Positions 31,918 to 48,860 are shown, counted from the first letter of the stretch. The stretch: DNA of 64,000 nucleotides from an uncultured delta proteobacterium (GCA_963809875.1 CAWELC010000012.1:16479-80478), one strand, 5' to 3'. Notes: a model not told the origin generated them from the sequence alone. Numbers and translations are program-made.

Positions 31918-33469
31918 ATGAGCGGCTCGGGCAGGACTAAGATCGGCACGGTCTGGCTGGTTGGGGCGGGGCCGGGAGACCCCGGGCTCGTGACGGTGAA
32001 GGCCGTGCGGGTGATGGCCGAGGCCGACGTGGTAGTCTATGACCACCTGGTGGACGAGGCGGTCCTTTCCCACGCACAGGATGCAGCCCGGATGATCTAC
32101 GCCGGTAAAGAAGGCGGTCGTCACAGCCTTTCTCAGGACGAGATCAACCGGCTTCTCGTCAGGGAGGCCAAGGCGGGCCGAAAGGTCGTGCGTCTAAAAG
32201 GAGGCGATCCGTTCGTCTTCGGGCGGGGCGGAGAGGAGGCACTGGCGCTGATCGGCGCGCAGATCCCCTTTGAGGTCGTCCCCGGGGTGACGTCGGCGAC
32301 GGCGGCCCCGGCATACGCCGGCATCCCCGTTACGCACCGGGGGAGGGCCTCGATGGTCGTCTTTGTGACGGGACATGAGGACCCGACCAAGGAGGACGAG
32401 TCGGTCGACTGGAGATACCTTGCGGGGTTTTCCGGGACGATCGTGGTCCTCATGGGGGTCAAGCGGATCGAGGAAAACGTCGCCGCTCTCGTTGAGCGGC
32501 GGAAAATCGCCCGACACGCCGTGCGCCGTGATCTCCCGGGGGACGACCCCGGCGCAGCGGAGCGTTCGGGCGCCCCTTTCGGGGATCGCCGAGAAAGCTC
32601 GCCGGGGCGGCGTGACGGCCCCGGCGGTCCTGGTGATCGGGGAGGTGGCGGGCCTGATGGAGACCCTCTCGTGGTTCGAGAAGCTTCCCCTCTTCGGCAG
32701 GCGCATCATCGTCACGCGGGCGGACCACCAGGCGGCCGAGCTCGCCGACCGGCTGAGGGCCCTCGGCGCGCTGCCGGTGGGGCTTTCGACCATCCGGATC
32801 GCCCGGCCGGAAGACGAACGGGCGGCCGAGGCCGCGGTGGCGACGGTTTCCGACAACGATATGGCCGTCTTCACCAGCCCCAACGGGGTGGAGTCCTTCT
32901 TCGAGGGGCTCGATCGGCTCGGGCGCGACGCCCGGGCTCTGGGTGGAGTGACCGTGGCGGCCATGGGTCCGGGGACGGCGGCCTCCTTGAGCAGACGCGG
33001 GATCGTCCCCGATATCGTCCCGGACCGGTTTGTGGCCGAGGCCCTGGCCGGGGCGATCATCGCGGCGGGGGCGGACGGCAAGCGTATCCTCCTCTTTCGG
33101 GCCGAGGGGGCCCGGGACGTGCTCCCCCGGCTCTTGACCGAGGCGGGGGCCTCGGTGTCGGACGTCGGGGCCTATCGCTCGGTCGCTCCGGAGACGTCCG
33201 ACGGACAGTTTACCCGTGCGTTCGAGGGGGCGGATCTCGTTTCCTTCACGAGCGGCTCGTCTGCGACAAACCTCAGGGAGATGATCGACCTCAAGAGAAA
33301 AGGGGGGCTCGACCTTCCGGAGTCCTCCATTCCGCCGGCCGCCTCGATCGGACCGGTCACGTCGGCCGCGGCCGCGGGCGCCGGCTTTTCAGTCGAGATA
33401 GAGGCGTCCGAACACACCATCGGGGGACTGGTGAAGGCGCTGGTTTCCCACTATTCGGAAAAGACATGA
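31918..33469 (+). pseudogene. cobA-hemD: Uroporphyrinogen-III C-methyltransferase / uroporphyrinogen-III synthase fusion (cobA-hemD), one +1 frame break as assembled
   Basis: VGAGPGDPGLVTVKA and GGDPFVFGRGGEE in the frame of 31918. From ~32494-32503 the conserved continuation GKSPDTPCAVISRGTTPAQR..VLVIGEV and the HemD domain (RIIVTRA..FTSPNGV..FTSGSSA) are in the +1 frame (ORF 32375..33469). Confidence 0.85.
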
Positions 33470-34647
33470 TCGGTATCTCAAAACTCTATATGGGCGCGGT
33501 CGAGGAATCGGACGTCCTCCGGTACGGGGGCGACTCCAAACGGCTCCCCTCGCACCTTCTGCAATTTTCGGCCGACAAGAAACCGGTGGTGGTCTTCAAC
33601 GCCACCCGGCGGTGCAACCTCAAGTGCATCCACTGCTACAGCGACTCCGAGAACAAAGATTACGCCGGAGAGCTGACCACCGGCGAGGTAAAAACGCTCA
33701 TCGACGACCTGGCGGGATTCGGCGCTCCGGTGATCCTCTTTTCGGGCGGGGAGCCGCTGATGCGGCCCGACCTGGAAGAGCTTATCGCCTACGCCGTGGG
33801 CCGGGGTATGCGGGCGGTCATCTCCACCAACGGGACCCTCATTACCGGGGACCGGGCGGCCCGGCTCAAAGACCTCGGGCTCTCATACGTGGGGGTAAGC
33901 CTGGACGGCCTGGAGGCGACCCACGACTCGTTTCGGAAGGTCGATGGGGCGTTCGCCCGGGCAATCGCGGGGGTGAAACACTGCCTCAAGCAGGGCATCA
34001 AGGTGGGACTGCGCTGCACCATCAACACGCTCAACGCCCACGAGATCGGGCCGATCTTCGACCTGATGGAGACCGAAAGGATCCCCCGGGTCTGTTTCTA
34101 TCACCTGGTCGTCTCGGGCCGGGGCGCCGCGATCCGTCAGATGATGCTCTCCCATGCCCAGACCCGGGCGGCGGTCGACCTGATCATGGACCGGACGAAG
34201 GATCTTGCCGACAGGGGATTTCAGCCGGAAGTCCTGACGGTCGACAACCACGCCGACGGCCCCTACGTGTATCTCCGGCTCTTGCGGGAGGACCCCGGGA
34301 GGGCAGCCGAGGTTCTGAAGCTCCTCAGGCTCAACCAGGGCAACTCGTCGGGCGTGGGGATCTCGTGCGTCAGCTTCGACGGGGAGGTCTACGCCGACCA
34401 GTTTTGGAGGGGCCGCTCCTTCGGCAACGTAAGGCGGCGTCCCTTCTCGGAGATCTGGACCGACCTCTCGAACCCCCTGATGGCCCGGCTCAAGGAAAAA
34501 AAGAAATATGTCACCGGCCGCTGTGCGACCTGTCGGTGGCTTGACGTGTGCGCCGGAAACTTCCGGGCGCGGGCCGAGGCTATGACGGGCGACACCTGGG
34601 CGTCGGACCCCGCCTGTTATCTGACCGACGATGAGATAGCCCCGTAG
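33466..34647 (+). CDS. Radical SAM/SPASM enzyme of the NirJ / AhbC / AhbD (tetrapyrrole-modifying) family
   Basis: The ATG at 33466 overlaps the hemD stop (ATGA). NATRRCNLKCIHCY (CxxxCxxC). C-terminal Cys cluster CATCRWLDVCAGNFRA...DPACY. It is the last 394 codons of the artefactual 909-aa ORF 31918..34647. Confidence 0.8.
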   Translation: MIGISKLYMGAVEESDVLRYGGDSKRLPSHLLQFSADKKPVVVFNATRRCNLKCIHCYSDSENKDYAGELTTGEVKTLIDDLAGFGAPVILFSGGEPLMRPDLEELIAYAVGRGMRAVISTNGTLITGDRAARLKDLGLSYVGVSLDGLEATHDSFRKVDGAFARAIAGVKHCLKQGIKVGLRCTINTLNAHEIGPIFDLMETERIPRVCFYHLVVSGRGAAIRQMMLSHAQTRAAVDLIMDRTKDLADRGFQPEVLTVDNHADGPYVYLRLLREDPGRAAEVLKLLRLNQGNSSGVGISCVSFDGEVYADQFWRGRSFGNVRRRPFSEIWTDLSNPLMARLKEKKKYVTGRCATCRWLDVCAGNFRARAEAMTGDTWASDPACYLTDDEIAP

Positions 34648-34819: not shown

Positions 34820-36680
34820 ATGAACCGTTATGATGTCATCGTCATCGGGGCGGGGCACGCCGGCATCGAGGCGGCGCTGGCCGCCGCCCGCATGGGGGCC
34901 TCTGCCCTCATGCTGACCGGAAACATCGACACGATCGGCCAGATGTCGTGCAACCCGGCGGTGGGGGGGCTTGCCAAGGGACAGCTGGTCAAGGAGATCG
35001 ACGCCCTGGGGGGCCAGATGGGCCTTGCCACAGACGCGGCGGGTATCCAGTTTCGGACCCTCAACACCACCAAGGGGCCGGCGGTCCGCTCCTCCCGGGC
35101 CCAGGCCGACCGGGCGGGATACCGCACCTACATGAAGGCACTCCTCGAAAACACGCCCGGTCTTTCAGTCCGGCAGACCATGGCCAGGGCGATCCTGGCC
35201 GAGGGAGGGAGAGTCGTGGGGGTGCTGACCGAGTACGGGGAGGAGTTCCCGGGTTCGGCCGTCGTCATCGCCGCGGGGACCTTTCTCAAGGGAATGGTCA
35301 GGATCGGCCGGAGTTCGTTTGGAGCCGGCCGACTGGGCGATCCCCCTTCCGAGTTTCTCTCCGATTCGCTCAGGGAGCTCGGTTTCGTCGTCGAGCGTTT
35401 CTCCACGGCCACGACGCCCCGGCTCGACGGCGCGACGATCGACTACTCGAAGACGACCGATGCAGCCCCTTCAGTGGCCGATCACGCCGTTTTCGTTTCG
35501 CTCGGGACCCATCGACCGGGACCAGCTCCCCTGCCACGTGACCTACACCAACGCCCATACCCATGACGTGATCAGGAAGTGCATCGACAACGACGCGGTC
35601 TCGGAGGGGTGGCTGAACCGGAAAGGACCCCGCTACTGTCCTTCCATCGAGGAAAAGGTGCTGTTCTTCCCCGAAAGAATTCGCCACCAGATCTTCCTGG
35701 AGCCCGAAGGGTTCCATACGACCGAGGTCTATCCGAACGGACTGTTTACAACCCTCGGCATAGAAGAGCAGATGAGGATCCTCTCGGCCATCCCCGGCCT
35801 GGAGGAGACGCGAATGACCCGGCCCGCCTATTCCATAAAATACGACTACGTGCCGCCGACCCAGCTTTTGCCGACGCTGGAGACCAAGCTTGTCTCCGGG
35901 CTCTTTCTCGCGGGCCAGGTCAACGGGACCTCCGGCTACGAGGAGGCGGGCGCCCAGGGGATCGTGGCGGGGATCAACGCGGCCTGCCATGTCATGGGCC
36001 GGCCGCCGCTTATCCTGTCCCGCTCGGACGCCTACATCGGCGTGCTCATAGACGACCTGGTGACCAAGGGCACCAACGAGCCGTACCGGATGTTCACGTC
36101 CCGGGCCGAATATCGCCTGGCCCTGCGGGAGGGAAACGCGATCTTCCGCCTCACGCCGAAGGGCAGGGAGCTCGGGCTGATCGGCGACGACGCCTGGAGC
36201 CTATTCAGCGAGAAGAAGCGGGCGCTGGAACGGGGCCTGGCCCTGATGGAAGAGCCGCTCTACCCGACGAGGGCGACCAACCAGCGCCTGGCGGACCGGG
36301 GCCTTTCGCCCATCATCAATAAGATGACCCACGCCGACCTGCTGCGGCGCCAGGAGGTGACCGGGGCGATCATCACGGGTATCGTGCCGGGGTTGGTGGA
36401 TCTTGCCGACGACATCCTTTCGGAGGTCGAGGTCCAGACCAAGTATGACGGATACCTCCGGCGCCAGGACGAAGAGATCGGCAGATTCAGGAGGCTCGAG
36501 GGGCTGCCGATCCCCGGGGATTTCCGCTACCGGGGGCTCGCGGGCCTCTCGGCGGAGGCCGCCGAAAAACTCGAAGAGACCAGGCCCCTGTCGATAGGCC
36601 AGGCCTCGCGCATCCCCGGCGTGACGCCGGCGGCCGTCTCGATCATCATGATCCATCTCAAGAAGCGCAGGGCGATGTGA
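34820..36680 (+). pseudogene. mnmG: tRNA uridine 5-carboxymethylaminomethyl modification enzyme MnmG (GidA), one +1 frame break as assembled
   Basis: YDVIVIGAGHAGIEAA and NPAVGGLAKG in the first frame. PFSF..LPCHVTYTNAHTHDVIR, GPRYCPSIEEKV and the rest are in the +1 frame. Break at ~35455-35490. Confidence 0.9.
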
Positions 36681-36827: not shown

Positions 36828-36857
36828 TTGACGAATCAAGGAAGAGCGCATTAAAAT
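36828..36857 (+). promoter_or_regulatory. Sigma70-like promoter, cassette 1
   Basis: TTGACG, 18-nt spacer, TAAAAT. Confidence 0.5.
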
Positions 36858-37001
36858 GTTCTAAGGTTCTTTTAGTCAGACCCCCAGGATTGGAGCGCCC
36901 TCACTCTCTCTCTCGCCATACGCCCGCCCCCGCAGGAAGTTGACTCCTTGTTCGCCTGGAGGGTGCCGTTTATTATGCACGTCTTTCAAAAGGAGGTTGC
37001 G

Positions 37002-38774
37002 ATGAGCTTAAAGAGAATATCGTTCTCAATTTTTCTCGCCGTCTTTTTCGGCACGGTTTTCCTTGTCTCGGGAGCCTTTGCCGGCGAGGCGATGTACATC
37101 GAGGAGCCCAATTTCTACAGCGTCCCCAAGACGATCATGGTCTCCGACAAGCCCGAATGGACGCCGGATTTCCGGGATAACCCGGCGCTCATGGGCACGG
37201 ACAAGGACGTCCGGTTCCTCATGGATCTCTACTATACGGGGAGCTACACCAAGGTCGATCTGGACAACTTCTTCACCTATCATATCGGGGGGATCCCCGT
37301 GTTCGGCGCCGGTTTCGGCTCCGGTAAGGAGGAGTACGTCACCAACGGGGTTGGCGCCGACGTCGGCGTGGTCCTCAAGGTGACCGACCGGTCCGAGCTC
37401 GGGGTCATCATGGGCTACCGCTACCTCAACACCGACATGGAGGGCGACCAGGTCTACCGGTGGTCTTCCCTCGGTGCCACCGGAAGTATGACCTCATCGC
37501 TGGAGCGGGAGATCAGGTCCAGCGATTTCTCCCTCGGGCTCCTCTATAACATCGAGTTTACCCCGGCCTTTTCGCTCGGGATGGGACTCAAGTACGGCCG
37601 CGGCGTCCACGAGAGCAACTTCTCGCTCGACGGTACCGGGAGCTCTGTTCCCTTCGGACCCGAGGTGATCACGATGGACCGCGAGCTGACGCTGGATTAC
37701 CACCGGTTTGCGCCCGTGCTGGGCGTATCGGTCAAGCCGAACGATGCACTGACCATTGACGCATCGGTAGAGGGCGGGTTCATCTTCGGCGGGGTGGATA
37801 AGGGCGACACCCTGAACAGCACCGTTGCTGTCGTGCCCGCTATCTTCAGACCGCACGTGGAGAACCTCGCATCCCGCGACCTTTCCGGGTGGGATATCAA
37901 AACGGGTCTTAAAGTGACGTACGCCGTCTCCGATAGACTCTCGCTGCCGTTCTTCGCTGATTTCGCCTACGGCGATACGAGATGGGAAGTCGACGGCACC
38001 GCGGCAGGCAACTTCTTCCCCGTCGACCTGCCGGAGATCGTCTATGCGCCCGGGCCGGTGGACTATGAGAACGACAGTGCCCTGTGGCACATCACCGGTG
38101 GGCTCGGCGCGGACTTCACCATGGCGGGATGGGATACGGAGGTGACCGGCGCATACACCCACTGGCAGAACCGCAACGACTACGACCAGAGCAATGTCAA
38201 CAGCACCGTGCTTTTTGCCCCGATCGGCGCGACCTCAGTCTTTGAGGAGAGCATCGTCGAGAAACGGGACATTATCAGCCTCGGGCTGATGATGAAAAGG
38301 GACTTCACGCCGTCCTTTGCCGCCGAGCTCGGGCTGCGCTACGACCTGGGGTTTGGCAGGATGGACCTCGACCGGGATTACAGGTCCGCACTCGCGTTTT
38401 TTGGGGCTCCGGCGCCGACCCTGTCGCTGTCCTATACCGGCAAAGACGTCTACCAGAACCTGACCTTCTCCACGCGGATGGAGTTTAAACCGTCAGACCG
38501 GCTGACGCTCGCGCTCGGAGGTGCCGTGACCTTCCCGCTTGACGCCCTCGATTACGAGCTGGAGGGAGACGTATCCGGAATCGGCACCAGCGTTCCTCCA
38601 TTCTTACAGTTGGGGTTTGACGGCCCGACGGACCTCGACTCCAAGACCACACAGTGGCAGTACGGCGGCTATTTCATGTTGACTTATGAGCTCGGCGCCC
38701 CGACGCCGGTGCCCCCGCCCGCCGCTCCCGCGCCGATCATCGAGCCCAAGCTTGAGCCGATGAGCCAGAAGTAG
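37002..38774 (+). CDS. Predicted secreted outer-membrane beta-barrel protein, unrecognised family, paralog 1
   Basis: SD aaaggagg upstream of the ATG at 37002. Signal peptide (FLAVFFGTVFLVSGAFA|GEA). Alternating hydrophobic/aromatic beta-strand-like segments with many G/Y/D/N/T residues. Barrel-end-like ...YGGYFMLTYELG followed by the tail APTPVPPPAAPAPIIEPKLEPMSQK. Confidence 0.6.
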   Translation: MSLKRISFSIFLAVFFGTVFLVSGAFAGEAMYIEEPNFYSVPKTIMVSDKPEWTPDFRDNPALMGTDKDVRFLMDLYYTGSYTKVDLDNFFTYHIGGIPVFGAGFGSGKEEYVTNGVGADVGVVLKVTDRSELGVIMGYRYLNTDMEGDQVYRWSSLGATGSMTSSLEREIRSSDFSLGLLYNIEFTPAFSLGMGLKYGRGVHESNFSLDGTGSSVPFGPEVITMDRELTLDYHRFAPVLGVSVKPNDALTIDASVEGGFIFGGVDKGDTLNSTVAVVPAIFRPHVENLASRDLSGWDIKTGLKVTYAVSDRLSLPFFADFAYGDTRWEVDGTAAGNFFPVDLPEIVYAPGPVDYENDSALWHITGGLGADFTMAGWDTEVTGAYTHWQNRNDYDQSNVNSTVLFAPIGATSVFEESIVEKRDIISLGLMMKRDFTPSFAAELGLRYDLGFGRMDLDRDYRSALAFFGAPAPTLSLSYTGKDVYQNLTFSTRMEFKPSDRLTLALGGAVTFPLDALDYELEGDVSGIGTSVPPFLQLGFDGPTDLDSKTTQWQYGGYFMLTYELGAPTPVPPPAAPAPIIEPKLEPMSQK

Positions 38775-38805
38775 CAATCCGATACGCATTGCCTGCGAAA
38801 CACGA

Positions 38806-38837
38806 ACGGGACGGCGAGAGCCGTCCCGTTTCCTTTT
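38806..38837 (+). terminator. Rho-independent terminator, cassette 1
   Basis: acgggacggc-gaga-gccgtcccgt followed by TTCCTTTT. Confidence 0.7.
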
Positions 38838-38933
38838 AGGGGACTACCACGCGCTATCGGCGCCGGCCGTCGTCACAGCTTTTTCCCGGAGCGGGGCTCA
38901 GGTCCGGATATTAAGAAAAACTAACTATTTTAC

Positions 38934-38962
38934 TTGACTGATCGAGGAGACGACATTAAAAT
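38934..38962 (+). promoter_or_regulatory. Sigma70-like promoter, cassette 2
   Basis: TTGACT, 17-nt spacer, TAAAAT. An A/T-rich stretch (gaaaaactaactatttta) lies upstream. Confidence 0.5.
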
Positions 38963-39102
38963 GCTCTAACCCTGGCGTGCGTATCCAAGGATCGGGGCCT
39001 CTTCGCCCGCAAAACGACCGTAACCACCCCCGAGGTTATTCAACCCCGGGTTAGTTCGTCAGCTGTGTATCGTTGTGAAAGTCTATTAAGAGGAGGAATT
39101 TT

Positions 39103-40884
39103 ATGAACATCAGAAAAGCATCGTCTCTTGTTTTTCTTGCGGTCCTCACGGTGATGCTGTTGCCTGCTTCGGGGGTTTTCGCCGGGGAGGCTATGTACAT
39201 CGAGGAACCGAACTTTTATAGCGTCCCCAAGACGATCATGATCCAGGACAAACCCGAATGGACTCCGGATTTCCGGGATAACCCGTCGCTCATGGGCACG
39301 GACAAGGACGTCCGGTTCCTCATGGACCTCTACTACACGGGGGGCTACACCAAGGTCGATCTCGACAACGACTTCACGTACGGTCTCCTCGGGGTCCCCG
39401 GGCTCACCGGGTTCGGTACCGGCTCCGGCCTGGAGGAATACGTGACCAACGGCGTGGGCGCCGACCTGGGGGTAGTGCTCAAGACCTCCGACCGGTCCGA
39501 GCTCGGGGTCATCATGAGTTACCGCTACCTCAATACCGACATGGAGGGGGACCAGCTCTACCGCTGGAGTTTCCTGGGCATAACCGGGAACATAACCTCG
39601 TCGCTCGACCGTCAGATCAAGTCCAGCGATTTTTCCCTCGGACTGCTCTATAACGTCGAGCTTACCCCGGCGTTTTCGCTCGGGATGGGGCTCAAGTACG
39701 GCTACGGGATCCACGAGAGCGACTTCGGACTTGACGGAAGCGGGACCTCCAACGCCTTCGGCCTCGAGGTAACGACCATGGACCGCGAGCTGGTGCTGGA
39801 CTACCACCGCTTCGCCCCCGTGCTGGGCGTCACGGTGAAGCCCTCCGACGCCTGGACGATCGAGGCTTCGGTCGAGGGCGGGTATCTCTTCGGCGGGGTG
39901 GACAAGGACGACTCGCTGACCGATTCGGCCGTTTTCATACCCCCTACCGACAGAACCCACTCAGAGGTCCTGGACTCGCGTGACCTGAGCGGCTGGGACA
40001 TCGGCACTTATGTCAAGGTGGCCTATGCCCTGTCGGACGATCTGTCGTTCCCGTTCTTCGTCGATTTCGCCTATATGGACACCACCTGGGAGGTTGATGG
40101 CTCTGGGACCGGGACCTTCTATCCCTACAATCTTCCGGAGATCATCTACGTCGCCGGGCCGGTGGACTACGAGAACCACAACGCCCTCTGGTACATTAAC
40201 GGGGGGTTCGGGGTAGACTTCGTGGCCGGCGGATGGGACATGGAGGCGATCGCCGCCTACACCCACTGGCAGAACCACAACAAATACGACCAGAGCAACG
40301 TCAACAGCACCGCGCTCTTTGCCCCGATCGGCTCTTCGTCGGTCTTTGAGGAAGACGTCGTCGAGAGGCGGGACTTCATCAGCCTCGGGCTTGATATGAA
40401 AAAGGAATTCAGCCCGGCCCTGACCACCCAGTTCGGGATTCGGTACGACGTCGGGTGGGGCAGCATGGATCTCGACCGGGATTACACGTCCCGGTTCGCG
40501 TTTGTCGGTGCTCCCGTGGTGCCGACGCTGTCGGCCTCGTACCACGACACAGACCTGTTCCAGAACCTGACCCTGACCGTCCGCACGGACCTCAAGGCCA
40601 CCGACCGGCTGACGCTGACGCTGGGGGCCAACGGGACCTTCCCGATCGACTCCCTCAACTATGATCTGGACGGAAACGCTTCGACTTCGATCCAGGCGAC
40701 TCCCCTGTTCCCATCCCGGTTGGACTTCAACGGGCCATCGAGCCTCGATGCGGATACCTCCGAGTGGCAGTACGGCGGCTATTTCATGCTGACCTACGAG
40801 CTGGGGATACCCAAGCCGGTGCCGCCGGCCACGGCCCCCGCTCCGATCATCGAGCCCAAGCTGGAGCCGATGAGCCAGAAGTAG
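39103..40884 (+). CDS. Predicted secreted outer-membrane beta-barrel protein, unrecognised family, paralog 2
   Basis: SD agaggagg. Signal peptide (VMLLPASGVFA|GEA). Same architecture as paralog 1. Tail IPKPVPPATAPAPIIEPKLEPMSQK. Confidence 0.6.
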   Translation: MNIRKASSLVFLAVLTVMLLPASGVFAGEAMYIEEPNFYSVPKTIMIQDKPEWTPDFRDNPSLMGTDKDVRFLMDLYYTGGYTKVDLDNDFTYGLLGVPGLTGFGTGSGLEEYVTNGVGADLGVVLKTSDRSELGVIMSYRYLNTDMEGDQLYRWSFLGITGNITSSLDRQIKSSDFSLGLLYNVELTPAFSLGMGLKYGYGIHESDFGLDGSGTSNAFGLEVTTMDRELVLDYHRFAPVLGVTVKPSDAWTIEASVEGGYLFGGVDKDDSLTDSAVFIPPTDRTHSEVLDSRDLSGWDIGTYVKVAYALSDDLSFPFFVDFAYMDTTWEVDGSGTGTFYPYNLPEIIYVAGPVDYENHNALWYINGGFGVDFVAGGWDMEAIAAYTHWQNHNKYDQSNVNSTALFAPIGSSSVFEEDVVERRDFISLGLDMKKEFSPALTTQFGIRYDVGWGSMDLDRDYTSRFAFVGAPVVPTLSASYHDTDLFQNLTLTVRTDLKATDRLTLTLGANGTFPIDSLNYDLDGNASTSIQATPLFPSRLDFNGPSSLDADTSEWQYGGYFMLTYELGIPKPVPPATAPAPIIEPKLEPMSQK

Positions 40885-40914
40885 CAGGCCGATGCGCGTT
40901 GTTACGAAACACGA

Positions 40915-40943
40915 ACGGGACGGCGAGAGCCGTCCCGTTTTTT
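40915..40943 (+). terminator. Rho-independent terminator, cassette 2
   Basis: Identical stem-loop acgggacggc-gaga-gccgtcccgt followed by TTTTT. Confidence 0.75.
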
Positions 40944-41057
40944 ATTAAGAGAAAACCGGGCGCTGTCTTCGCGGACCGGCATTGCGTCCCTTTCCCGGAG
41001 CCAGGGGCTCCGGGGACGGTCCGACCGAATTATAATGGGAAAAACTAACTAATTTAC

Positions 41058-41086
41058 TTGACTGATCAAAGCCAAGACATTAGACT
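41058..41086 (+). promoter_or_regulatory. Sigma70-like promoter, cassette 3
   Basis: TTGACT, 17-nt spacer, TAGACT. Same A/T-rich upstream stretch as cassette 2. Confidence 0.45.
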
Positions 41087-41228
41087 GCTCTAATCCGAGC
41101 GTGCGACATCCGCAGGGTCGGAGCCTCTTGACCTCCGTACCGATCGCAGGCCCGCTCCGGACGATACTCAAACCCGGGTTCGCTGTAACCCATATGCAGG
41201 CGCAGAATTCTATTGTGAGGAGGATTTG

Positions 41229-43002
41229 ATGAACGTTAGCAAAGCATCATCTCTTGTTTTCCTCGTGGTTCTTACGGTGATATTGTTGCCCGTTTCGGGG
41301 GCCTTCGCCGGAGAGAGCATCTTCATCGACGAGCCCAATTTCTACAGCGTCCCCAAGACGATCGTGATCCAGGACAAACCCGAATGGACTCCGGATTTCC
41401 GGGACAACCCGGCGCTGATGGGCACGGACAAGGACGTCCGGTTCCTCATGGACCTCTACTATACCGGGGGATACACCAAGGTTGACCTCGACAACGACTT
41501 CACGTACGCTACCGCCGGGGTCACCGGGTTCGGGACCGGCTCCGGCCTGGAGGAATACGTGACCAACGGCGTGGGCGCCGACCTGGGCGTGGTGCTCAAG
41601 ACCTCCGACCGTACCGAGCTCGGGGTCATCATGGGCTACCGCCACCTCAACACCGACATGGAGGGCGACCAGGTCTACCGCTGGAGCTTTTTTGGTTTCA
41701 CCGGCAACATGACCTCCTCGCTCGACCGCCAGATCACGTCCAGCGATTTTTCTCTCGGGCTGCTCTATAACATCGAGCTTACCCCGGCCTTTTCGCTCGG
41801 GATGGGGCTCAAGTACGGCTACGGGGTCCACGAGAGCGACTTCGGACTTGACGGAAGCGGGACCTCCCTCATCTTCGGACCGGAGACGACGACCATGGAC
41901 CGCGAGCTGGTGCTCGACTACCACCGCTTCGCCCCCGTGCTGGGGGTTTCCGTGAAGGCCTCCGACGCGTGGACGATCGAGGCGTCGCTGGAGGGCGGGT
42001 ATCTCTTCGGCGGGGTGGACAAGGACGACGTGCTGATCGACTCGTTTCCCGGCGGCCTACCGCTCAACGACAGGACCCACACGGAGGTGCTGGACTCGCG
42101 CGACCTGAGCGGGTGGGACATCGGCACCTATGTCAAGGTGACCTACGCCCTCTCGGACGATCTCTCGTTGCCGTTCTTCGTCGATTTCGGCTATATGAAC
42201 GCCGCCTGGGAAGTGGACGGCTTCGGGACCGGGACCTTCATTCCCTACAACCTCCCCGAGATCGTCTACGTCCCCGGGCCGGTCGACTACGAGAACCACA
42301 ACGCCCTCTGGTACATCAACGGGGGGTTCGGGGCGGACTTCGTGGCCGGCGGATGGGACATGGAGGCGATCGCGGCCTACACCCACTGGCAGAACCATAA
42401 CAAGTATGACCAGAGCAACGTCAACAGCATCGCGGTCTTCGCCCCGATCGGCTCGGTCTCGGTTTTCGAGGAGGACGTCCTGGAGAGGCGGGACATCATC
42501 AGCCTTGGGCTTGATATGAAAAAGGAATTAAGCCCGGCCCTGACCGCCCGGTTCGGTATCCGGTACGACATCGGGTGGGGCAGCATGGAGCTCGACCGGG
42601 ACTATAACTCCCGCTTCGCCTTCATCACCCCTCCCGCGCCGCCGCTCGCGGCCTCGTACGACGATAGCGGATCTCTTCCAGAACCTGACCCTGACCGTCC
42701 GCACGGACATCAAGGCGAGCGATCGGCTGACTCTGTCCCTGGGCGCGAACGGGACATTCCCGATCGACTCCCTCGACTATGATCTGGACGGAAACGCGTC
42801 CAGCTCGCTCACGGCGTCTGTGCCATTCTTCCCCCGGCTGCTGTTCAACGGGCCGTCGAGCCTCGATGCGGATACCTCCGAGTGGCAGTACGGCGGCTAT
42901 CTCATGCTGACCTACGAGCTGGGCGTCCCCAAGCCGGTACCACCGGCCGCGGCCCCCGCGCCGATCATCGAGCCCAAACTGGAGCCGATGAGCCAGAAGT
43001 AG
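41229..43002 (+). pseudogene. Outer-membrane beta-barrel paralog 3, one +1 frame break near the C-terminus as assembled
   Basis: Collinear with paralog 2 up to ...LAASYDDS. After ~42666-42671 the homologous DLFQNLTLTVRTDIKASDRLTLSLGANGTFPIDSLDYDLDGN...WQYGGYLMLTYELGVPKPVPPAAAPAPIIEPKLEPMSQK is in the +1 frame (ends 43002). Confidence 0.6.
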
Positions 43003-43033
43003 CAGTCCGATACGCGTTGCCTACGAAACACGA

Positions 43034-43060
43034 ACGGGACGGCGAGAGCCGTCCCGTTTT
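43034..43060. terminator. Terminator of cassette 3, abutting the stop codon of the convergent DUF3795 gene
   Basis: Same stem-loop followed by TTT. The minus-strand TGA is at 43062-43060. Confidence 0.65.
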
Positions 43061-43548
43061 CATTGTATTCCAGAAAGCAGATGTGCCGCTACGGGCCGCC
43101 TGCTCCAGACGTAGTGCGGGCCGCGGTTTTCGGCCCACCTGTCCAGGCCGTGCTCCCGGATGAGCCTGAGATTATTTCTCGGGGTGTCGCCGTGAAAGGC
43201 GGCGAAAGGCTCCAGCAGGGCGCAGGTTTCGAATTCCGCGCACTCCCAGCAGCCGGCATATCCATTTTTCTTCGCGCATGCGCGGATAGCGCACTTTTTC
43301 TTTCCTCCCCCCTCGGCGCAGGGGCCGGGGCATTTCAGGGAGGTGACGGCAGAGAGGTATTCCCGGAACCGGTCGTAGCCGGCAAAGACCTCATCCCTTG
43401 AGGCTTTGAGGGCGGCGTAGCGCCCGAAATCGAGCGAGCCCAGCTGCTCGCCAAGGATGCGGGCCGCCTCGAACAGCGTCTCTTTCGAGGGGATGCAGTC
43501 TTTGCAGTAGAGGCCGCAGCAGGCGGTATATTTTCTGCTCTCTTCCAT
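43060..43548 (-). CDS. Cys-rich DUF3795-like protein
   Basis: CCGLYCKDC, CPGPC, CAIRACA, CWECAEFETC. Confidence 0.6.
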   Translation of the reverse strand: MEESRKYTACCGLYCKDCIPSKETLFEAARILGEQLGSLDFGRYAALKASRDEVFAGYDRFREYLSAVTSLKCPGPCAEGGGKKKCAIRACAKKNGYAGCWECAEFETCALLEPFAAFHGDTPRNNLRLIREHGLDRWAENRGPHYVWSRRPVAAHLLSGIQ

Positions 43549-48074: not shown

Positions 48075-48860
48075 ATGAAAATGAAATCGTCGATCGTACC
48101 GGCCGCAGGAGTGCTTATCGCTTTCTTGATTGCGCTACCCGCGGCATCGCTGGCCCTTACCGGCACCGAGATCATGACCAAGGTCCACGACCGCGACAAC
48201 GGGAAATCGTCCATCATAGAGAGCAGGATGCTTCTGTTCAACGATAAGGGACAGAGCAAAGAGCGGGTCGTGAGGGCCGTCCGTAAGGAATACGGGGACC
48301 TCAGCAAGTCGCTGATCCGCTTCCTGTCTCCGGCAGACGTGAAAGGGACCGGGTTTCTGATCTGGGAAAACGCAAATCGGGACGACGACCAGTTCCTCTA
48401 TCTGCCCGCCCTCAAGCAGGAACCACGCCGGATCGCGTCCTCGGAAAAGAGCTCACGCTTCATGGGAACGGAGTTCACCTACGAAGACCTCGAAAACCGC
48501 AAGGTCGACAAAGACAATCACAAGCTGTTGAGGGAAGAGAAGCTCGACGGCAAGCAGGTCTACGTCGTGGAGAGCGTCCCCATAAAGGGCTCGGACTCGC
48601 AGTACGGAAAGCTCATCTCCTGGGTGCGCCCGGACGTCTGGATTCCGGTCAAGATCGAGTTTTACGATAAGAACGGCGCGCTCCTCAAGGTCCTGACCGT
48701 CAAGAAGCTCGAACAGGTCCAGGGTATCTGGACCACCAGTGACAGCGTCATGGACAACGTCCAGGACAAGAAGAAGACCGAGCTTTTCCTGGACAAGGTG
48801 CAGTATAACGCCGACATCCCCGATGAATATTTCACCGAGCGCTACCTCAAGAGGGACTAG
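48075..48860 (+). CDS. Outer-membrane lipoprotein-sorting (LolA-like) family protein
   Basis: Signal peptide. FLSPADVKGTGFLIWEN..DDQFLYLPALKQEPRRIASSEKSSRFMGTEFTYEDL matches the LolA-like pattern. Confidence 0.7.
   Translation: MKMKSSIVPAAGVLIAFLIALPAASLALTGTEIMTKVHDRDNGKSSIIESRMLLFNDKGQSKERVVRAVRKEYGDLSKSLIRFLSPADVKGTGFLIWENANRDDDQFLYLPALKQEPRRIASSEKSSRFMGTEFTYEDLENRKVDKDNHKLLREEKLDGKQVYVVESVPIKGSDSQYGKLISWVRPDVWIPVKIEFYDKNGALLKVLTVKKLEQVQGIWTTSDSVMDNVQDKKKTELFLDKVQYNADIPDEYFTERYLKRD

Follow-up and report, generated by a model that had tools for sequence, protein, structure and literature searches.

Three paralogous genes for an outer-membrane beta-barrel protein of lineage-restricted distribution, diverged from one another and each transcribed on its own, stand in tandem at positions 36,828 to 43,060 of a 64,000-nucleotide (nt) stretch of DNA from an uncultured delta proteobacterium (GCA_963809875.1, CAWELC010000012.1:16479-80478), the whole of which is called the window here. 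The copies, c1, c2 and c3 from 5' to 3', encode proteins of about 590 amino acids (aa), which, taken as a whole, are best explained as abundant, plugged, FadL-like channels of 16 strands with a periplasmic tethering tail, a reading to which we give a probability of roughly 0.55. Hardly anything is known of the outer-membrane proteins that uncultured anaerobic Desulfobacterota make. The family described here probably ranks with the most highly expressed envelope proteins of its hosts; it lacks a curated model, and its members are therefore annotated as 'hypothetical' everywhere. The novelty of the barrel itself is moderate, since it is either a new family or a variant of a well-known kind of protein. 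The tail shared behind the beta-signal is a genuinely new lead and the more interesting one.

An uncurated family of outer-membrane barrels

The family is uncurated and restricted to a lineage. Searches of Pfam, NCBIfam and the sequences of the Protein Data Bank (PDB) gave no match at threshold for the window's proteins or for the family members, in line with an earlier, sequence-only reading of this DNA that could not place the protein in any known family. Below threshold, generic outer-membrane barrel models (OMP_b-brl) in curated libraries were matched. The family profile gave nothing meaningful against PDB sequences, and a profile built from five sequences found no relative in the species-representative genomes. 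Among 5.8 billion clusters there were three outside homologues, all from JGI metagenomes, and an exhaustive profile search of 1.84 billion representative proteins recovered 47 clusters; 29 of these had E<1e-30, and about 20 were full-length. The family alignment, the later AlphaFold2 model and the library scans of individual members were based on 21 sequences.

AlphaFold2 gave a mediocre model of c2 from five sequences (predicted local distance difference test, pLDDT, of 64). With 21 sequences the model reached a pLDDT of 85.5 and a predicted template modelling score (pTM) of 0.82, and takes the form of a tall barrel of 16 strands of about 24 residues each. It begins with a Sec signal peptide and an N-terminal segment (residues 28-69, pLDDT 67-83), the first strand lying near mature residue 43, and the strand that closes the barrel carries the beta-signal ..YGGYFMLTYEL. 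The window copies run on from ..TYEL into a tail, the last 26 residues or so of the c2 model being disordered (pLDDT <50), and most family members that have no tail end in ..YEF, a classical beta-signal. A signal peptide, an even-stranded antiparallel barrel in the model and a C-terminal beta-signal together support the assignment of these proteins to the outer-membrane beta-barrels (MBB clan), and the same assignment in the sequence-only reading agrees with the model.

Comparison with described barrels places the family near several of them and within none. PorV/PorQ (NCBIfam NF033709), a FadL-like barrel family, was matched weakly by 7 of the 21 members with scores far under the cut-offs (best E 0.0015; 12.9 bits for c2 against a cut-off of 90), and the window family differs from it in having no type IX secretion context at its genes. 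A distant member, P0016, comes from Candidatus Zymogenus saltonus, whose class consists of fermentative, anaerobic Desulfobacterota (bioRxiv 10.1101/2021.03.22.436540); the guanine-cytosine (GC) content of the window, 61%, is above the 54% reported for that class. The UniRef label of P0016 is 'DUF5723 domain-containing', and DUF5723 (Pfam PF18990) gave no match at E<=10 for P0016 or the window proteins in a Pfam copy that may lack the model. The published model of a Brachyspira DUF5723 protein (bioRxiv 10.1101/2025.01.03.631275) is a 16-strand barrel too, and it has its long strands in common with the model of the window family.

Likewise, the Desulfovibrio genome has several candidate porins (DVU0797, DVU0799), and its major porin was unannotated until it was studied (PMC5686591), so that the window family resembles DVU0799 as an unannotated outer-membrane protein of the Desulfobacterota with several candidates per genome. 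The 466-aa DVU0799 is a trimeric protein, modelled with 18 strands, whose sequence stops at the beta-signal (PMC5686591), and in a comparison by description only it differs from the window copies in length, strand number and C-terminus. Porins of this type are not detectable homologues, unless they are among the 47 clusters of the profile search. A second uncharacterised barrel family (P0043, P0045, P0047 and P0049; 525-593 aa) gave weak profile matches (E 1e-7 to 1e-4); it matches no Pfam family, and its N-terminus, W-Q-G-R-M-x-G-M-G-D-P-x-G-L-x-x-D-E-S-D-F-L-[IV]-[NH]-P-A, holds another motif of the NPA type described below.

Resemblance to FadL and the C-terminal tail

Foldseek searches of the PDB placed the FadL family first for both AlphaFold2 models, with FadL homologues and TodX on top. 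The best match was 3dwo (E 1.3e-9; template modelling, TM, scores of 0.38/0.48), followed by E. coli FadL and TodX, and then closely by TonB-dependent receptors and CymA. The likeness to FadL, TodX and TbuX (Pfam Toluene_X, PF03349; channels for hydrophobic compounds) lies in a tall barrel of the monomer type and in a segment of about 42 residues ahead of the first strand. In all 21 members N60, P61 and L63 are invariant, and A62 is present in at least 90% ([A/S]62). Given cleavage of the signal peptide after A27, as derived from the AXA rule, the conserved N-terminal segment of about 42 residues carries this NPA(L) at mature residues 33-35, and E. coli FadL (query sequence 100% identical to 1t16) has N33-P34-A35-L36 at the same mature numbering, within the hatch that we take to be residues 1-42. 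The PDB matches listed include the FadL hatch mutants N33A, P34A and delta-NPA. With an invariant motif at the FadL position and FadL structures as top fold matches, the exclusion of FadL 'by motif' in the sequence-only reading was premature. The window family differs from FadL in that its proteins are about 120 residues longer and its copies carry a C-terminal tail, which FadL does not have.

The N-terminal segment would probably plug the lumen of the barrel in the manner of the FadL hatch. Such a plug would make the protein a gated, substrate-selective channel and not an open general porin, and amphipathic or hydrophobic solutes would be its most likely substrates. The paralogs, with their differing outer loops, could be distinct in what they bind or admit, or in the surface that they present. 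A consensus promoter, a long leader, a strong ribosome-binding site and a strong terminator suggest that these are abundant outer-membrane proteins. The plugged channel of FadL type is the leading reading of the model but is unproven, and the family is not filed under FadL; if the reading is true, the design of a plugged channel for hydrophobic substrates would extend to a 16-strand scaffold.

After ..TYEL, the window copies continue with about 26 residues, G-x-P-x-P-V-P-P-x-x-A-P-A-P-I-IEPKLEPMSQK, that is, a Pro/Ala-rich linker and then P-[VI]-IEPKLEPMS-x-K. The last 45 or so residues had already been noted as nearly identical among the copies, and they are indeed conserved, but the significance of the tail was missed. 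Back-translation of its core, IEPKLEPM, gave a pattern with three occurrences in the window, where 0 are expected. The species-representative genomes contain it in 38 stretches, for which the information content of the pattern gives an estimate of about 13 chance matches, and the metagenomes in 44. In 47 of the 101 single matches within these stretches the motif closes the protein, preceded by a Pro/Ala linker and a beta-signal-like ..F-D-[IL]-[CYF]. BLAST sorts the proteins with such tails into two clusters (about 285-535 aa and about 345-400 aa). By BLAST and hidden Markov model comparison both are unrelated to the 590-aa family, whose profile neither of them matches, and the search of 1.84 billion representatives recovered two 345-aa proteins through the tail region alone. 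The bearers come from two 'uncultured delta proteobacterium' metagenome-assembled genomes (MAGs), one Candidatus Zymogenaceae MAG and various sediment metagenomes, and within the 590-aa family the tail is found in two separate clades. Since it occurs on unrelated families and in two separate clades, the tail follows the host lineage and not the protein family. The literature gave no match for 'EPKLEPM' and PDB sequences none for the tail; a tail profile run against 5.8 billion proteins returned nine fragments only and was swamped by Pro/Ala words.

A barrel of 16 strands would place its C-terminus in the periplasm, and we therefore infer that the tail ends there as a tether or address tag. OmpA consists of a barrel, an Ala/Pro-rich hinge and a periplasmic peptidoglycan-binding domain. 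By analogy, the tail may be a periplasmic tether, namely an OmpA-type Pro-rich hinge, placed right after the barrel with its C-terminus predicted in the periplasm, in which a 12-residue peptide would stand in place of the folded OmpA_C domain. Most likely it would anchor the barrel, and with it the outer membrane, either on peptidoglycan or on some partner in the periplasm. In Lpp, the C-terminal Lys is linked to peptidoglycan (to meso-diaminopimelic acid, by an L,D-transpeptidase in the covalent tether). Many tails similarly have a terminal Lys, the three of the window ending in ..SQK, but the terminal residue varies (K, N or Y) among the tail-bearing families.

We propose only tentatively that the tail, a proline-rich linker plus P-[VI]-IEPKLEPM-[ST]-x-[KN], is an undescribed lineage-specific module that would fix outer-membrane barrels from three or more unrelated families to the cell wall or a dedicated receptor in the periplasm. 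If this is true, Zymogenia-like Desulfobacterota would have a new outer-membrane tethering or sorting system, and the beta-signal of a barrel need not be C-terminal in these bacteria. The attachment of the outer membrane to the wall varies by phylum in diderm bacteria, and a short peptide tag reused on several barrels would be a compact new solution. Such a tag would also be a convenient mark by which to recognise outer-membrane proteins in genomes of this kind.

Tail-bearing genes form tandem arrays (12 and 8 genes, about 1040-1100 nt apart) in two 'uncultured delta proteobacterium' MAGs, on contigs CAWKCL010000001.1 (loci L009, L018 and L041) and CAVTLK010000003.1 (L022 and L033). What they encode is an unrelated protein of the outer membrane, about 290 aa long and ending in the same ..VIEPKLEPMSKN tail, and indels break up many of the frames. 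The units of L033, the only array locus scanned, have their own promoter-like site (TTGACA-18-TAAAAT) and hairpin terminator.

Several results weigh against the reading of the window's proteins as tethered, FadL-like channels. FadL is a barrel of 14 strands, plugged by the hatch and opening laterally where strand S3 is kinked, and the model of the window family has 16 strands; the Foldseek TM scores (0.38 and 0.48) are low, and TonB-dependent receptors score nearly as well. Toluene_X was not matched at E<=1 by any of the 21 members, and hhalign comparison of the family profile with FadL gave probabilities of 1.9% (1 sequence) and 5.1% (17 sequences), the FadL side being thin and its homologue set composed of close relatives only (at least 74% identity). 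The case for high expression comes entirely from consensus signals. The tails of other families end in KN, KY or QN, so that a terminal Lys is not universal, and neither a partner of the tail nor an enzyme joining it to peptidoglycan was identified. Finally, the neighbourhoods of the distant members P0006, P0008, P0010, P0011 and P0012 share no gene and so offer no functional clue.

Three transcription units and their divergence

The whole region consists of three direct repeat units with a start-to-start spacing of 2101-2126 nt and 68-88% identity. The paralog copies share 74-87% nucleotide identity, i.e. they differ at 13-26% of nucleotides, with indels in addition; duplication in the assembly was rejected on account of this divergence. 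The promoter-like sites of the three units, which resemble sigma-70 promoters, are in register (a scan of the region gave five sites against 2.0 expected), the leaders are about 135 nt long in all three, and AGGAGG stands 6-8 nt ahead of the ATG in each copy. The tandem units, the frames of c1 and c2 and the promoter, leader and strong Shine-Dalgarno site of each unit had all been described correctly in the sequence-only reading. The features are as follows.

36828..36857, plus strand: promoter-like site of unit 1, TTGACG-18-TAAAAT, from a promoter-motif scan; the same site is kept upstream of the P0005 gene in L004
36865..37001, plus strand: leader (5' untranslated region, UTR) of unit 1, about 137 nt, with an AGGAGG ribosome-binding site at its end
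37002..38774, plus strand: coding sequence of c1, 590 aa; signal peptide at residues 1-27, NPA motif at 37179-37187, predicted 16-strand barrel, tail at 38694-38771
38804..38831, plus strand: terminator hairpin of unit 1, then a T-run
38934..38962, plus strand: promoter-like site of unit 2, TTGACT-17-TAAAAT
39103..40884, plus strand: coding sequence of c2, 593 aa, the protein used for modelling; NPS at 39280-39288, tail at 40804-40881
40913..40940, plus strand: terminator hairpin of unit 2, then a T-run
41058..41086, plus strand: promoter-like site of unit 3, TTGACT-17-TAGACT
41229..43002, plus strand: coding sequence of c3, ATG at 41229, 590 aa after removal of one extra base; tail at 42922-42999
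42660..42675, plus strand: site of a +1 frameshift in c3, GACGATAGCGGATCTC; a single-base deletion anywhere in this stretch restores the frame
43032..43059, no strand assigned: terminator hairpin of unit 3, then a T-run; abuts the 3' end of a convergent DUF3795 gene

The terminator hairpin, ACGGGACGGC-GAGA-GCCGTCCCGT, has three exact occurrences without a mismatch, against 0 expected in shuffled sequence, so that the 'almost invariant' of the sequence-only reading can be sharpened to identical. Given the abutting convergent gene, the hairpin of unit 3 probably ends transcription in both directions. An Rfam scan of the whole window found no family and a comparison of the leaders found no conserved secondary structure, and thus there is no sign of a riboswitch or thermometer. 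The hairpin also occurs at L001 1912-1935 and at L004 210-233 and 2350-2373. Between c1 and the P0005 gene it is identical at 30 of 31 positions, though the spacer from stop codon to hairpin is identical at only 12 of 31. It is kept in sequence far beyond the need of a generic terminator, no compensatory changes were seen, and it may have a sequence-specific role. In L004 the end of an upstream paralog and then the same hairpin precede P0005, which means that the tandem arrangement recurs in a third organism.

Whole-gene ratios of nonsynonymous to synonymous divergence (dN/dS) among c1, c2 and c3 are 0.22-0.31, and the synonymous divergence (dS) is 0.37 between c2 and c3 and 0.72-0.73 between c1 and either of them. 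Mapping of the paralog alignment onto the AlphaFold2 model gave the following region classes.

Predicted outer loops: amino-acid identity 0.47-0.59, dN/dS 0.47-0.65, dS 0.54-0.96, with all six gapped columns
N-terminal segment: amino-acid identity 0.83-0.93, dN/dS 0.08-0.35, dS 0.30-0.55
Tail: amino-acid identity 0.85-0.92, dN/dS 0.09-0.16, dS 0.39-0.57

By these ratios all three genes are under purifying selection and differ mainly in the predicted extracellular loops. The diversification of presumed surface loops that the sequence-only reading had suggested is visible in the indels and the highest dN/dS of the predicted outer loops; since loop dN/dS is below 1, the divergence is consistent with relaxed constraint, and positive selection is not demonstrated. 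Gene conversion of the termini, suggested at the same time, does not fit the data: dN/dS there is low but dS is ordinary, and a Sawyer-type run test for conversion among the copies was not significant (best uncorrected P 0.02). The near-identity at synonymous sites described for the N-terminus holds locally, at codons 46-90, where the proportion of synonymous differences between c1 and c2 is 0.15-0.19 against 0.46 gene-wide, but not over the whole segment, in which dS (0.30-0.55) is not clearly lower. Because dS at the termini is ordinary, their conservation points to purifying selection on the protein, family-wide, and not to homogenisation.

A metagenome ortholog, P0004 (on contig L001, compared over positions 1-1880), bears on the age of the split among the copies. 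In the quartet of c1, c2, c3 and P0004, 206 of 231 informative sites support (c1,P4)|(c2,c3), and since P0004 groups with c1, the split between c1 and c2/c3 predates the divergence of the window and L001 organisms. Discordant phylogenetic signal is limited to the 5' UTR and about the first 40 codons (the signal peptide region), where P0004 has a c2-like 5' UTR and signal peptide on a c1-like body. This mosaic is either the product of recombination or an assembly chimera, as chimeric joining of short reads could look the same. P0004 is the last gene of its array and adjoins ADC, c1 is the first in the window, and L001 begins just upstream of P0004.

The third cassette is a real paralog unit, as the sequence-only reading held, but that reading overlooked that its frame is broken by a +1 frameshift near 42667-42670. 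As assembled, the open reading frame (ORF) stops at 42782, and removal of one base restores a 590-aa protein ending at 43002. After the frameshift, dN/dS against c2 is 0.26, the same as before it, and the site is outside any repeat tract. Three broken genes lie within 11 kb, namely c3, mnmG and cobA/hemD. In mnmG (gidA; 34820-36680), just upstream, an indel of one base near 35455-35465 has left two ORFs that overlap, with positions 1-214 of the GIDA profile in one frame and 216-390 in the other; the split falls exactly at 215 and the site is not a homopolymer. A 909-aa ORF (31918-34647) is a composite that holds the cobA methylase domain and a downstream radical-SAM gene in one frame, the HEM4 (hemD) domain (32375-33469) lying in another. 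Probably indels have disrupted what was a fusion of cobA and hemD, which is then read through as high GC leaves few stops. The tail-bearing reading frames of the 'MFD' MAG loci are fragmented likewise. Given the breaks in mnmG and cobA/hemD and a dN/dS that stays the same beyond the shift, the c3 frameshift is more probably an assembly error than a recent event, and frameshifts in this assembly are not to be taken as pseudogenes.

Alternative readings and genomic surroundings

The window's proteins could instead be general diffusion porins, the major outer-membrane proteins of the lineage with an open, water-filled pore of 16 strands; the N-terminal segment would then be a periplasmic or oligomerisation element, and the paralogs would be variants in pore size or surface like OmpF, OmpC and PhoE. 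Classical porins, which form trimers with loop 3 as the constriction, have 16 strands, as the model does, and the expression signals resemble those of major outer-membrane proteins. The genes also stand alone, with no conserved metabolic neighbours, and the major porin of Desulfovibrio likewise went unannotated until it was studied (PMC5686591). However, no porin is among the top 50 Foldseek matches, which are dominated by plugged or gated barrels (the FadL family, TonB-dependent receptors and CymA), and no Pfam or NCBIfam porin family was matched. Strands of about 24 residues and an N-terminal segment of 42 residues that is strongly conserved and includes an invariant NPA(L) are, to our knowledge, not features of classical porins, and we regard general porins as a possible but on balance improbable identity for the family.

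The paralogs might also form a surface-variation system, in which the loops would diversify under pressure from phages or predators, the c3 frameshift would serve as an on/off switch and conversion would shuffle loop cassettes. Divergence is greatest in the loops, where all the indels lie, the 5' end of P0004 is a mosaic and the tandem arrangement is kept in relatives, all of which would fit. Nevertheless, loop dN/dS stays below 1, the quartet sites mark old and stable paralog lineages throughout the gene body including the loops, and the run test for conversion was not significant; the c3 frameshift has no repeat tract at its site, and the nearby housekeeping genes with frameshifts of their own point to assembly errors. 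Such a system is therefore unlikely. Still further from the evidence is the view that the triplication is an assembly artefact or that the genes are decaying pseudogenes. The frameshift in c3 and the other indels of the assembly speak for it, but copies that differ at so many nucleotides and by indels are not collapsed or duplicated reads, purifying selection acts on all three genes, including c3 after its shift, and independent metagenome contigs carry orthologues and a tandem neighbour, which leaves this view very little room. A plugged, tethered channel remains the preferred explanation of the array.

Upstream of the array lie haem biosynthesis genes (hemA, hemC, cobA/hemD and the radical-SAM gene) and mnmG, and downstream are genes for DUF3795, ADC, NMO, a nitroreductase, a TPR protein and a LolA-like protein; none of these neighbours is kept beside distant members of the family. 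Horizontal acquisition was considered and rejected, since the region, with a GC content of 59-63%, shows no anomaly beside flanks of 56-70%. The TPR protein found beside P0011 is not a homologue of the one close to the barrel genes of the window. The LolA-like/DUF1329 gene (48075-48860), of the outer-membrane lipoprotein-sorting type, is a few kb downstream, and no link to the barrel genes has been established. On L001, P0004 adjoins the same ADC, TPR and NMO genes as the array in the window, and between c3 and ADC the window has a Cys-rich DUF3795 gene (minus strand, 43060-43548) that L001, syntenic in other respects, lacks.

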